Positions 2,421 through 40,451 of a DNA stretch of 64,000 bases are shown here, piece by piece. The stretch covers positions 4,650,001-4,714,000 of the forward strand of contig OZ024763.1 of the NCBI GenBank assembly GCA_964016885.1, given 5' to 3'. A program made the position numbers and the translations under genes. This stretch comes from Eledone cirrhosa (Eukaryota). Position 1 is the first letter of the stretch. The number at the start of each line of letters is the position of its first letter. The notes beneath the pieces were generated by a model. It was not told the DNA's origin and made no database searches. It saw nothing but the letters and a program-made list of their open reading frames with translations.

Positions 2421-2617
2421 ATATATATATGTGTATCTGTGCGTAATTCTTTTCTTTCGCACCCTTGGTCTGGCAGGTCGCTTTTTTTCTCTCTCTCGTC
2501 TACGATTTCACAGAACTTACGTTCACCGAAATCACAGACTAGATAGATCCCTTCTTCCTCACTTTTCGTTGCTTCACCATTTTTGTTTGTTTACACTCGT
2601 GTCCCCTTTATTTACGT

Positions 2618-2719
2618 GTCCCAACGACTTTTTTTAGCCGTTGCTCGCCCCAACCGGAGGTATATGGTCTTTAAAGCGATGAAATACCAATGATGGTTGG
2701 AAGATCACTGATGAAGGAC
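2618..2719 (+). ncRNA. Candidate non-circularly permuted (pseudoknotted) hammerhead ribozyme, intact core
   Basis: GTCC-hairpin-TCGC..CCAACC..GGTAT-A-TGGTCTT..GCGA-T-GAAA-TACC..GGTTGG-AAGATCA-CTGATGA-A-GGAC. Helix III ATACC/GGTAT and helix I TGGTCTT/AAGATCA abut the core nucleotides exactly. Confidence 0.72.
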
Positions 2720-5134: not shown

Positions 5135-5165
<31 letters not shown>

Positions 5166-5318
5166 TGCACCACCATTTGCAACGCGCAGCCATCATTATT
5201 ATCATATATATAAATATATATATATATATATGTATGTGTATATATATATATTTATATATATATATATATGTATGTGTATATATATATATATTTATATATA
5301 TATATATATATGTATGTG

Positions 5319-7780: not shown

Positions 7781-7887
7781 TTATCCGTCATTAGTTGTCT
7801 GCTAGGCATCATAGGCATTTGTTCTTGTTAGAGACAAGATACCTCAGCCCAGGGCGAAACAATAACTAAAGTAAGTTATTGGGATAA
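7781..7887 (-). ncRNA. Degenerate copy of the permuted hammerhead (second subfamily)
   Basis: Same architecture with different helix sequences (TTATCC/GGATAA, CAATAACT/AGTTATTG, TTGTCT/AGACAA, site ATC). Core mutated to CTAATGA and CAAA. Confidence 0.55.
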
Positions 7888-9964: not shown

Positions 9965-11184
9965 TCACTCTACTGCTGAGTTCCAAGGACGCCAAACGTT
10001 AGACGAAGCGAATTTGTTTTCGCTACCCTCTTGGCTTGATACCTTATTATAAATGTGTCCTTTGTTTCTCATGTTTGGTTCTAACACTACAGGATCTGCT
10101 TCATGTAATGGTTGACACCATTGTGGTATTATTTCAGTGGAGGCTGTCGAATTACTTTTTACTATGTTAACATTAGCTGTTGCATGTGGCGAGACAACAC
10201 AAGAGATTTCCTGCATCTTGTCTAATGTTGTATAGAGAGGAATGGCTTTCACCGGTAATGGTGTCGCCACTAAAAACGCGATGGGAGTGCCGTTATTGTT
10301 GCTGAAAATGATGTGGTTTTTGTTGTTGTTGCTGCTGTAACTGTAACTCTCAACACCAGCTTGCTGAGCTATGTCATCCATATTTAATGTGTTAGTAGTA
10401 GTAGTATTAGTAGGATGAGGAGGATGAGGAGGAGGAGTTGTTATCACAGAACTTCTGGAAGTCCTCAGTGATGATACTTCCATCATTTCCTGTTCGTTAA
10501 CTGAACTGGTTGGAGTAATGATGCGTACATAAGCTTTACAATTCTGTTTGGACATGCTTGTGTCTAGTTTTATAGCATGCTGGTGGTTATTTACAAGCTT
10601 TGGTGTGGAATCAGTAATAATGTCAACAGGCTGAAACAAACCTTTTGAGACTGGTGTTATAAATGGTATTGATGTTACATCTCCATTAGGGACAACACAC
10701 GAGATTTCTGGAGTTACTTTACAGTTTGTGTTCTTTATAACATTCCCACTTAGGGTCGGTGTTTGCAAAGGCAATGAAGAACAATCATATTGATTGTTAT
10801 AATTCACAGGAAATTGTTGTGTGCACTTGCTTCTGGTTAAATGTTTTTCAGGCTGGGATACGTTAAGGGTTAATACAGCATTTGTTGTTTGAGCTTGTGT
10901 CTGTGGTTGACTTTGATGGTCACAATTCTGTCTTACTCCAAAGTTTGTCGTCGTTTCCATTTCATCTGAGCTTGACACTGATCCTAGATTTGAGCTGCCA
11001 TCTGAGCTGCTCACCAGTGAACCGTTCTTATAACATTGGTTCAAATGGCTCATGACACGTGTTTGGAATTCATTGTTGCCATAGTCTTTTTTAGATAGAC
11101 AGCGCACAACCTCGTTCATGCAGTCATTGAAACCGGCTTTGTATCGTGGGTGATCACGGAACCCTTGCTCTTTCGACATAACCT
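9965..11184 (-). CDS. Hes: HES gene coding exon 4: Orange domain, S/T/P/N-rich region and WRPW motif (ends VWRPWNSAVE*)
   Basis: Acceptor tttgcag|AG completes the phase-1 codon G|AG. Orange domain RYKAGFNDCMNEVVRCL...RVMSHLNQC and the Groucho/TLE-binding WRPW are present. Total CDS 138+99+94+1220 = 1551 nt, 516 aa. Confidence 0.96.
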
Positions 11185-11223
11185 CTGCAAATTGGAAAAC
11201 AACAATTATTATTAATAATATCA

Positions 11224-11273
<50 letters not shown>

Positions 11274-11279
11274 TGCATT

Positions 11280-31316: not shown

Positions 31317-31342
31317 GAAAAATAAGAAATTAGAAGTTAGGG

Positions 31343-31449
31343 TTATCCGCCATCGGTTGTCTACTAAGCGTCATAGGCATTTCTTCGCATTAAAGATAAG
31401 ATACCTCGGCCTAGGGCGAAACAATAACTAAAGTAAGTTATTGGGATAA
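31343..31449 (-). ncRNA. Degenerate copy of the permuted hammerhead (second subfamily)
   Basis: Homologous to 7781-7887. GAAA-TGCCT/AGGTAT-C is retained; core mutated to CCGATGG. Confidence 0.55.
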
Positions 31450-32272: not shown

Positions 32273-32324
<52 letters not shown>

Positions 32325-32386
32325 GTGTGTAAATATGATAATAATGGAGCTGCGGCGCTGCAAATGGGTTACATATGAAAAAGTTT

Positions 32387-32487
32387 GTCCTCATCAGTGG
32401 CCTTCCAACCGTCGTAGGCATTTCGTCGCATTAAAAGCCATATACCTCAGGTTGGTGCGAGCAACGGCTAAAAAAAGTCGTTGGGAC
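32387..32487 (-). ncRNA. Candidate non-circularly permuted hammerhead ribozyme, second copy with intact core
   Basis: Minus strand reads GTCC-CAACGACT/AGCCGTTG-CTCGCA-CCAACC-TG-AGGTAT-A-TGGCTTT-TAA-TGCGA-C-GAAA-TGCCT-ACGAC-GGTTGG-AAGGCCA-CTGATGA-GGAC. Helix I differs from the 2618 copy by pairing-preserving changes. Confidence 0.72.
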
Positions 32488-32695
32488 ACGTAAATAAAGG
32501 GGACGCTAGGGTAAACAAACAAAATGGTTTAAGCAACAGAAAGTGTGTATATATATATACACACGTTTTTCCTGTATATTTGCTTTTATCTCTCCGAATT
32601 CCACACTTTATCTACACCTTCCATTCACAGCAATACATACACGGAGAAACGCAAAGGTCAGCATGTGTAATAAGAAGCTTGTCTTGACTCTAATA

Positions 32696-37686: not shown

Positions 37687-37875
37687 TAATTGTTTCTACT
37701 TTAGGCACAAGGCCAGCAATTACCCAGTGCATTACTGGTACTTTATTTTATCGACCCCGTAAGGATGAAAGGCAAAGTCAACTTCGGCGGGATTTGAACT
37801 CAGATCGTAAAGGGACGTAACTATGCTGGAAAGCATGGCGTCCGACTCTCTACCGATACTGCCAATCCACCGCCC
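37687..37875 (-). mobile_element. SINE family A, continuous with the 45-bp array
   Basis: Full body and B box; its 5' head is the first unit of the array. Confidence 0.88.
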
Positions 37876-40028
37876 TAGCATGGCGTCCGACCCTCTACCG
37901 ATACTGCCAATCCACCGCCCTAGCATGGCGTCCAACCCTCTACCGATACTGCCAATCCACCGCCCTAGCATGGCGTCCGACCCTCTACCGATACTGCCAA
38001 TCCACCGCCCTAGCATGGCGTCCGACCCTCTACCGATACTGCCAATCCACCGCCCTAGCATGGCGTCCGACCCTCTACCGATACTGCCAATCAACCGCCC
38101 TAGCATGGCGTCCAACCCTCTACCGATACTGCCAATCCACCGCCCTAGCATGGCGTCCGACCCTCTACCGATACTGCCAATCCACCGCCCTAGCATGGCG
38201 TCCGACCCTCTACCGATACTGCCAATCCACCGCCCTAGCATGGCGTCCGACCCTCTACCGATACTGCCAATCCACCGCCCTAGCATGGCGTCCAACCCTC
38301 TACCGATACTGCCAATCCACCGCCCTAGCATGGCGTCCGACCCTCTACCGATACTGCCAATCCACCGCCCTAGCATGGCGTCCGACCCTCTACCGATACT
38401 GCCAATCCACCGCCCTAGCATGGCGTCCGACCCTCTACCGATACTGCCAATCCACCGCCCTAGCATGGCGTCCAACCCTCTACCGATACTGCCAATCCAC
38501 CGCCCTAGCATGGCGTCCGACCCTCTACCGATACTGCCAATCCACCGCCCTAGCATGGCGTCCGACCCTCTACCGATACTGCCAATCCACCGCCCTAGCA
38601 TGGCGTCCGACCCTCTACCGATACTGCCAATCCACCGCCCTAGCATGGCGTCCGACCCTCTACCGATACTGCCAATCCACCGCCCTAGCATGGCGTCCAA
38701 CCCTCTACCGATACTGCCAATCCACCGCCCTAGCATGGCGTCCAACCCTCTACCGATACTGCCAATCCACCGCCCTAGCATGGCGTCCGACCCTCTACCG
38801 ATACTGCCAATCCACCGCCCTAGCATGGCGTCCGACCCTCTACCGATACTGCCAATCCACCGCCCTAGCATGGCGTCCGACCCTCTACCGATACTGCCAA
38901 TCCACCGCCCTAGCATGGCGTCCAACCCTCTACCGATACTGCCAATCCACCGCCCTAGCATGGCGTCCGACCCTCTACCGATACTGCCAATCCACCGCCC
39001 TAGCATGGCGTCCAACCCTCTACCGATACTGCCAATCCACCGCCCTAGCATGGCGTCCGACCCTCCACCGATACTGCCAATCCACCGCCCTAGCATGGCG
39101 TCCAACCCTCTACCGATACTGCCAATCCACCGCCCTAGCATGGCGTCCAACCCTCTACCGATACTGCCAATCCACCGCCCTAGCATGGCGTCCGACCCTC
39201 TACCGATACTGCCAATCCACCGCCCTAGCATGGCGTCCGACCCTCTACCGATACTGCCAATCCACCGCCCTAGCATGGCGTCCGACCCTCTACCGATACT
39301 GCCAATCCACCGCCCTAGCATGGCGTCCAACCCTCTACCGATACTGCCAATCCACCGCCCTAGCATGGCGTCCGACCCTCCACCGATACTGCCAATCCAC
39401 CGCCCTAGCATGGCGTCCGACCCTCTACCGATACTGCCAATCCACCGCCCTAGCATGGCGTCCGACCCTCCACCGATACTGCCAATCCACCGCCCTAGCA
39501 TGGCGTCCGACCCTCTACCGATACTGCCAATCCACCGCCCTAGCATGGCGTCCGACCCTCTACCGATACTGCCAATCCACCGCCCTAGCATGGCGTCCGA
39601 CCCTCTACCGATACTGCCAATCCACCGCCCTAGCATGGCGTCCGACCCTCTACCGATACTGCCAATCCACCGCCCTAGCATGGCGTCCAACCCTCTACCG
39701 ATACTGCCAATCCACCGCCCTAGCATGGCGTCCGACCCTCCACCGATACTGCCAATCCACCGCCCTAGCATGGCGTCCGACCCTCTACCGATACTGCCAA
39801 TCCACCGCCCTAGCATGGCGTCCGACCCTCCACCGATACTGCCAATCCACCGCCCTAGCATGGCGTCCGACCCTCTACCGATACTGCCAATCCACCGCCC
39901 TAGCATGGCGTCCGACCCTCTACCGATACTGCCAATCCACCGCCCTAGCATGGCGTCCGACCCTCTACCGATACTGCCAATCCACCGCCCTAGCATGGCG
40001 TCCGACCCTCTACCGATACTGCCAATCC
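37832..40028. repeat. 45-bp tandem array (about 49 copies) of the SINE 5' head
   Basis: Unit TAGCATGGCGTCCGACCCTCTACCGATACTGCCAATCCACCGCCC, near perfect. Confidence 0.97.
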
Positions 40029-40451
40029 TATCAATAATAGTTCAGGAAATCAGGTAAAACAACCCCGTAAATAAATGTAGGTTCCACTGAAATGCTCACG
40101 CGTTGAGAAACGAGTGAACATGGTGCGGACTGCGACAGGGAAGCTGAGAATATTCCAGATCTGCTTCGAAAAACTGGAAGGGCCGCAGGGTTAAGTGTGG
40201 GTGGGGATTAACGATTAAAATCCATTAAATATGTAATTTCTTTTTTTATTTTTTTTTTATTTTTATTTTTTTTTTTTTTTACTTCAGCCCAAGGTCGGAT
40301 ACTTTTTCGACATACAACGTATGTCATGATGTAACGCAGCAACAGTGTGGATAGCAAAATGATTTGATCTGAAATAACTATCTGGCCGTCTGCAGCATTA
40401 AGGCTTCTATTATATAGCACGTGCACGCGCACGCACGCACACACACACACA

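Follow-up and report, generated by a model that had tools for sequence, protein, structure and literature searches.

A predicted hammerhead ribozyme of S-G-C block order, with a putative kink-turn, in an abundant non-coding Penelope-like repeat of Eledone cirrhosa

Introduction

The closest described relatives of the motif reported here are the type-SGC hammerheads (HRIMA-1, SGC variant) of Eckert et al. (2023, PMC10085705), which came from metatranscriptomes and in which the cleavage-site block (S), the GAAA block (G) and the CUGAUGA block (C) follow each other in this order. According to the accessible part of that article, the natural SGC ribozymes cleave in vitro at 0.007–0.19 per min, and the descriptor used to find them asks for an uninterrupted block C and for a G10.1-C11.1 pair with at least two further helix II pairs. 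The direct link of the distal end of helix III to the I-II helix was described there as hard to reconcile with the crystal structure. Within the accessible literature that was found, the S-G-C order was known only from these metatranscriptome RNAs, and the word "octopus" does not occur in the supplement of PMC10085705. A literature search that was thin on subscription journals found no published description of the ribozyme form presented below.

Two groups of animal elements are also relevant. The non-LTR retrozymes of animals carry type I hammerheads in units of approximately 170–450 nt, as stated in the accessible parts of Cervera and de la Pena (2020, PMC7229834) and Li et al. (2026, bioRxiv 10.64898/2026.07.22.740005). 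For the Naiads, no canonical hammerhead is reported in the accessible text of Craig et al. (2021, PMC8557442), in which Naiads Ovul and Esco are tagged "HHR_half_core". The hallmarks of Penelope-like elements (PLEs) given in the same article are 5′ truncation, partial tandems, inverted 5′ copies, an optional tail of 30–40 nt and (TA)n targets. Finally, the standard kink-turn (McPhee et al. 2014, PMC4382518) joins two helices through a bulge of 3 nt and the G.A and A.G pairs that follow it. All comparisons with these sources refer to their accessible parts.

The DNA analysed here is a stretch of 64,000 nucleotides of the Eledone cirrhosa genome (assembly GCA_964016885.1, contig OZ024763.1, positions 4,650,001–4,714,000), called the window below, and all positions are those of the window. 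A first-pass annotation had placed a permuted hammerhead on the minus strand at 32387–32487, as the second intact copy of a motif seen at 2618–2719.

Results

The core and its surrounding strands

All hammerhead core bases were present between positions 32386 and 32488 of the minus strand, in the order S, G, C. Block S (32434–32446) consisted of the helix III strand 32446–32442, the cut-site base N17 (A32441) and the helix I strand 32440–32434. By analogy with known hammerheads the predicted cut lies 3′ of A32441, in an AUA triplet, a position that agrees with the earlier prediction. Block G (32417–32430), separated in the 5′ to 3′ direction from the helix I strand by a linker of 3 nt, contained the adaptor partner 32430–32426, C11.1 (32425), GAAA (32424–32421) and the helix III strand 32421–32417. 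Block C (32386–32404) was made of the helix I strand 32404–32398, CUGAUGA (32397–32391), G10.1 (32390) and the closing strand 32389–32386. CUGAnGA, GAAA and UH were thus all found, with helices I and III flanking them. Four further elements lay 5′ of block S: the 5′ strand of the closing helix (32484–32488), a hairpin that would form an arm of the helix II junction (32462–32483), an adaptor strand that would replace the missing 5′ strand of helix II (32456–32460) and the 5′ strand of the I-II interaction helix (32450–32455). Three bases separated this last strand from the helix III strand, and six bases separated the helix III partner from the I-II helix partner 32410–32405.

No GAAA was found 3′ of the core within approximately 300 nt of this copy, and in a tandem monomer the nearest one was 365 nt away. 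Rfam gave no match at the gathering score across the window. The canonical types I, II and III were rejected, as their cyclic order is C-G-S where the order here is S-G-C and Rfam found nothing. The reversed cyclic order also led us to reject a canonical hammerhead formed between tandem units.

When the positions were re-read, every strand named in the first-pass annotation was present where it had been placed, including the adaptor TCGCA (32460–32456) facing TGCGA (32430–32426). The core-flanking bases C and G, instead of T and A in the 2618 copy, and the absence of one base after CUGAUGA relative to that copy were confirmed as well. Helix I (TGGCTTT with AAGGCCA) does keep its seven pairs, but the compensatory changes announced for it come down to a single two-sided change relative to the 2618 copy (U-A to C-G), the other two being G.U to G-C and C-G to U.G. 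The U.G is private to the window copy: 47 of 48 subfamily-B matches, with overlapping loci counted more than once, keep C. The strands ATGCCT and AGGTAT given for helix III exist, but their sixth pair is probably not formed, because its A is the 1n base of a putative kink-turn and faces an A in the sister subfamily. The helix II junction, previously called ambiguous, was resolved as one N10.1-N11.1 pair followed by a junction. The word "intact" holds for the sequence of this copy, its catalysis being a prediction. A non-circularly permuted hammerhead is still the best reading, and the covariation over many subfamilies speaks for it far more strongly than a comparison of two copies. That comparison overlooked the kink-turn and the fact that both copies belong to a repeat present at least 16,110 times in the genome.

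The window copy and the type-SGC hammerheads share the S-G-C order, the linker of 3 nt that leads from helix I towards helix II, an I-II interaction helix whose strand immediately precedes helix I, and a short connection between helix III and the I-II helix. They differ on the side of helix II, which is continuous in type-SGC and is replaced here by one pair and a junction supplied by the 5′ end, with a variable N10.1-N11.1 pair. Here, unlike in type-SGC, a putative kink-turn joins helix III and the I-II helix on both strands, and the motif resides in an animal retroelement of high copy number, whereas the source of type-SGC was metatranscriptomes. The SGC descriptor of PMC10085705, as available to us, did not match the window copy, since helix II is split. 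The motif likely works like an SGC hammerhead, yet it is not a member of the type as defined.

The putative kink-turn

In all 12 subfamily representatives that were aligned, helix III and the I-II helix were separated by a bulge of 3 nt and then a 1b.1n G.A pair. In the window copy the bulged strand (32405–32416) contains the bulge, 1b G, 2b A and 3b C and continues into the 3′ strand of the I-II helix, and the non-bulged strand (32447–32449) reads 3n U, 2n G, 1n A. Among the representatives, 1b was G and 1n was A in 12/12, 2b was A in 11/12, and 2n was G in nine and U in three; the 2b.2n combinations were A.G (8), A.U (3) and U.G (1). This is the bulge and G.A/A.G layout of the standard kink-turn (McPhee et al. 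2014, PMC4382518), the kink itself being read here from sequence, and a U at 2n, as in three of the 12 representatives, also occurs in Kt-23. According to the ion-folding rule of PMC4382518, each of the two youngest subfamilies satisfies one arm, A with 3n = G and B with 3b = C, whereas seven of the 12 representatives fail the rule, their 3b.3n being U.U or a Watson-Crick pair. Such a kink-turn would supply the bend needed to link the distal end of helix III to the I-II helix.

Covariation and specificity

The alignment was made of 12 hand-picked, intact-looking subfamily representatives, retained from 14 after a misaligned subfamily H row and the window copy were dropped. Over 36 pairs, 92.1% of the cells were paired and 24 pairs showed a two-sided change, figures that are inflated by the choice of intact-looking copies and by shared ancestry. 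None of 500 shuffles reached either value, and slid controls paired at 29–44%. Two-sided changes affected 7/7 pairs of helix I (93% of cells paired), 5/6 of the I-II helix (97%), 3/5 of helix III (98%), 5/8 of the 5′ hairpin, 2/4 of the closing helix (85%, subfamily B being one base out of register in the alignment) and 1/5 of the adaptor helix, in which four pairs were present in 11–12 of 12 representatives and the fifth in five. The N10.1-N11.1 pair was present in 10/12 (A-U 3, U-A 3, C-G 2, U.G 2) and unpaired in two, and it is A.A in part of subfamily E; the helix II side reads as a single covarying pair and then a junction in place of a helix. We know of no tested hammerhead with a helix II of this kind.

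Two variants were seen beside this pattern. Subfamily H (L160–L179; L162:1080–1202) looks like a junction isomer, in which the closing strand is a possible partner of N10.1 and the adaptor one of N11.1, so that 10.1 and 11.1 are not paired directly. Pairing of N11.1 with the adaptor is likewise possible, by eye, in the octopus and coral-type Naiad ends of the accessible published supplement. In subfamily G (L140–L159), CCGAUGA replaces CUGAUGA in most copies.

Two matches to the core pattern were found in the window, against none in 100 shuffles of it. A descriptor of the pairing gave 139 matches over the window and loci L001–L199 (overlapping loci counted twice), all of them family members by inspection. 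On 15.84 Mb of shuffled sequence it produced one core-only match and no full match. Viral contigs held no match to the core pattern, and metagenomes held 49.

It could be argued that the arrangement arose by chance in a neutrally copied repeat and that its pairings reflect common descent: the copies do share ancestry, related sequences can beat shuffle controls, and the nested folding energy is unremarkable. Chance would have to account for two-sided changes in all seven helices, for the lack of any full match in the shuffled DNA, for the failure of all 49 metagenome matches in the pairing test, and for the same architecture, built from other sequences, in the accessible published Naiads. We regard this explanation as highly improbable.

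The predicted fold and the question of cleavage

The nested minimum-energy fold of the window copy was a different long helix (−27.1 kcal/mol, z −1.04), in which the strands of the kink-turn and of helix I are engaged. Taken by itself, the proposed nested scaffold reached −23.0 kcal/mol. Summed helix energies, which ignore the costs of the pseudoknot loops, were left out of the evidence. In subfamily B the competing nested fold is the lower in energy, and three mutually crossing helices make a difficult fold. These two points, together with the 7/12 representatives that fail the ion-folding rule, would agree with an RNA that cleaves, but by strand swap between two molecules or units, or after a protein has folded the kink-turn; hammerheads of PLEs and of amphibian retrozymes are reported as dimers in the accessible literature. 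All helices nevertheless fit within 103 nt, while neighbouring units lie 540–750 nt apart, and the published SGC ribozymes cleaved during transcription without an added folding protein, as stated in the accessible part of PMC10085705. An aided or dimeric mode of cleavage therefore appears unlikely.

Another view retains the fold and gives up the catalysis. The motif would then be a hammerhead-derived recognition signal for a retroelement protein or for a host kink-turn-binding protein, which would suit a known protein-binding motif such as the kink-turn, a fold located just upstream of the insert 3′ end, a single direct helix II pair that is mismatched at times and the CCGAUGA of most subfamily G copies. 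Against this, the unpaired catalytic bases are unchanged or almost unchanged, in contrast to the freely covarying helices: GAAA was the same in 12/12 representatives, and the cut-site base N17 was A or C in 12/12 and never G. The remnants of Naiads found in this genome carry UUGAUAA, which we take to be a natural U3-A8 swap of the C3-G8 core pair, another point against a loss of catalysis; a literature search gave no account of this swap. We judge this view improbable, and a hammerhead predicted to cleave 3′ of A32441 remains our preferred reading.

Repeat family and insertion anatomy

The window copy is a 223-nt, 5′-truncated insert (32545–32323, minus strand) of a non-coding Penelope-like/retrozyme monomer of subfamily B (monomer of 621 nt), lying between (TA)n and (CA)n runs and 98% identical to the tandem monomer of locus L025 over 32545–32490 and 32489–32323. 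Its 3′ end (32323–32385), with an optional tail of approximately 40 nt, is joined to (TA)n; the 3′ ends of subfamilies A and B cluster approximately 10–12 and 50–65 nt behind the anchor. The 2618 copy (2616–2719, plus strand) was recognised by sequence comparison as a member of a second young subfamily, A (monomer of 631 nt). Comparison also revealed two decayed copies of subfamily C with damaged cores, at 31342–31446 and 7784–7884 (both minus strand), and a tail-only insert of the repeat was observed inside a (TA)n array at 5163–5218 (plus strand).

A degenerate core pattern gave 16,110 matches in the 3.0-Gb genome and no match in the control, and three copies in 590 kb of unselected DNA imply a similar genome-wide number. 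When 40 of 1,845 candidates were scored, the 171-nt stretch had 42 matches at 97–100% identity. Searches recovered the further subfamilies E, G and H, then F, I and J. Subfamilies A, B, C, E and H consisted of non-coding, pyrimidine-rich monomers of 540–750 nt, arranged in partial tandems in which each unit had one motif. This is the layout of non-LTR retrozymes, which in the accessible descriptions are also non-coding tandem monomers with one hammerhead per unit and are proposed to be non-autonomous PLE derivatives; they have a type I motif and units of approximately 170–450 nt, whereas the repeat, as known from its DNA, has a motif in S-G-C order and longer units.

The inserts were truncated at scattered points on their 5′ side, frequently carried an inverted 5′ copy and ended at either of two 3′ ends approximately 40 nt apart before (TA)n. 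All the hallmarks of a non-autonomous PLE given in the accessible text of PMC8557442 were found in the repeat. Inserts end 60–105 nt 3′ of the predicted cut site, yet they run intact across that site and past one unit, which fits a circular or an uncut template. The normal sequence 14–15 nt upstream of the predicted cut site was missing from 276 copies. Among the first 100 of these, the upstream match was at most 4 bases in 61 and 5–13 bases in 39, an excess of approximately 2.8-fold per position by hand count that is confounded by TA, since the bases upstream of the cut site are TATA and the target is (TA)n. Elsewhere too, 5′ ends favoured AT or TA (17 of 78 rows, duplicates included, against 11%).

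Other features were observed in the window. Ten canonical-order, type I-like hammerhead cores (1449, 17635 and 34431 on the plus strand; 49709, 49287, 47004, 45603, 45278, 16803 and 6758 on the minus strand) are probably 3′ ends of other Penelope-like families, and none of the ten reached the Rfam gathering score. Exons of a hairy/enhancer-of-split gene (9968–11278, ~14263 and ~15438, minus strand) encode bHLH pieces, a Hairy_orange domain (E 1e-11) and a WRPW end; the window copy lies upstream on the same strand, approximately 17 kb from the most 5′ of the exons that were recognised. A tandem array with a 45-bp unit, whose copies are 98–99% identical, occupies approximately 37700–40100.

A probable link with Naiads

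In the accessible supplement of PMC8557442, the parts seen by eye at the 3′ ends of Naiad_Obim and Naiad_Ovul, approximately 70 nt from the end, follow each other as in the repeat: hairpin, adaptor, I-II helix, kink-turn, helix III, helix I and core. By eye, the repeat appears to have this architecture and short motifs in common with both. Naiad_Esco has the same order, together with helices I, III and I-II, and three near-identical records preceding the Aacu, Anas and Movir-1 headers (coral-type) have it with the 5′ adaptor, both by eye. GAAA precedes the core in two further records, and two records in the nematode part of the supplement are in canonical order. No such motif was seen by eye in Naiad_Omin, Naiad_Adux and Naiad-1_Skow, so that two of the five cephalopod Naiad 3′ ends inspected (Omin and Adux) are without it. 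In the accessible description, Naiads resemble the repeat in their (TA)n targets, partial tandems, inverted 5′ copies and tail; they code for a protein, whereas the repeat is non-coding and the Naiads of the Eledone genome are decayed.

Remnants of Naiads are present in the E. cirrhosa genome. They resemble octopus Naiads from the literature, and their relatives have the Naiad layout with an N-terminal GIY-YIG. The 3′ UTR of 12 aligned remnants contained an S-G-C motif with a UUGAUAA-like core, in which 52 of 60 helix III and 61 of 70 helix I cells were paired. Its peripheral parts differ from those of the repeat and its helix I is self-complementary; as the remnants form one family, they provide no independent covariation. 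These remnants (L307:2543–2994 and 11 related ones) appear to represent a second SGC architecture, in which blocks S and G are separated by a hairpin and a kink-turn is not evident; the core of the least decayed copies reads UUGAUAA.

The ribozyme of the repeat in the sense of the ORF was found in none of 23 Naiad remnant stretches, apart from one weak match (E 0.58). A pattern modelled on the ribozyme of Naiad_Ovul gave two matches only, both of them subfamily-G copies. No intact Naiad was present among 59 and 53 protein matches in the genome (the second search being stricter at the first pass), which were all fragments or broken. An RT-motif pattern gave three matches, all Naiad remnants, against three in the control, and a homolog search with one remnant frame gave no match. 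The monomers of the repeat encode no ORF with an N-terminal GIY-YIG and a C-terminal RT, and the Naiad ORFs found elsewhere were all broken. In the fetched loci, the cores of those coding PLE fragments that had a recognisable ribozyme were of canonical type I, and no fragment ran on into an SGC motif; an apparent link between ribozyme and ORF in L142 was rejected because a (TA)n run splits them. No motor was found for the young subfamilies of 97–100% identity, as the Naiad matches were fragments or broken and the coding PLEs were seen with canonical cores. A 727-aa ORF of another PLE-type family (L081:2–2182, L089 and L113), with a C-terminal GIY-YIG-like region and no Pfam match, is a candidate motor.

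Discussion

The locus at 32386–32488 belongs to an abundant non-coding Penelope-like repeat. The RNA of this repeat is predicted to form an S-G-C hammerhead, likely cut 3′ of A32441 and likely inherited from Naiads. In the model that we propose, helix III, the kink-turn and the I-II helix would form one bent hairpin, as the covariation suggests. The loop of this hairpin would pair back to both of its flanks: with the 3′ flank it would form helix I, and with the 5′ flank the adaptor helix. In place of helix II there would be a junction, made up of the N10.1-N11.1 pair, the adaptor helix, the 5′ hairpin and the closing helix. The kink-turn would fold the I-II helix back along helix III and would thereby let a normal core form.

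By analogy with retrozymes and PLEs, read-through transcripts of tandem copies may be cut into monomers that are ligated to circles. A Penelope-type RT/GIY-YIG protein could then reverse-transcribe the circles at (TA)n targets, starting approximately 60–105 nt 3′ of the cut site. Reverse transcription running round a circle would explain the inserts that span the cut site and exceed one unit. The window copy would be a 5′-truncated insertion, for which transcription is not required.

A broader proposal is more tentative and we hold it as somewhat doubtful. It states that the connectivity lies outside the six-permutation scheme, with a split block C, both ends leaving via the helix II junction and a kink-turn closing helix III onto the I-II helix, and that cleavage is possibly under the control of metal ions or of the host 15.5K/L7Ae protein through the 3b.3n pair. 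This form would be a general Naiad ribozyme, from ctenophores and corals to cephalopods, and its non-coding carriers would have outlived the Naiad motor and would now be moved by another Penelope-type enzyme.

If the motif cleaves, non-circularly permuted hammerheads are no rarity of virus-like environmental RNA: they would occur ten thousand times or more in one animal genome, in a form that escapes Rfam and the published descriptors. The kink-turn would offer an answer to the geometric puzzle of Eckert et al., the connection of the distal end of helix III with the I-II helix. The same reading, if true, would explain the apparent lack of a hammerhead in the Naiads, which are among the most abundant retroelements of invertebrates.
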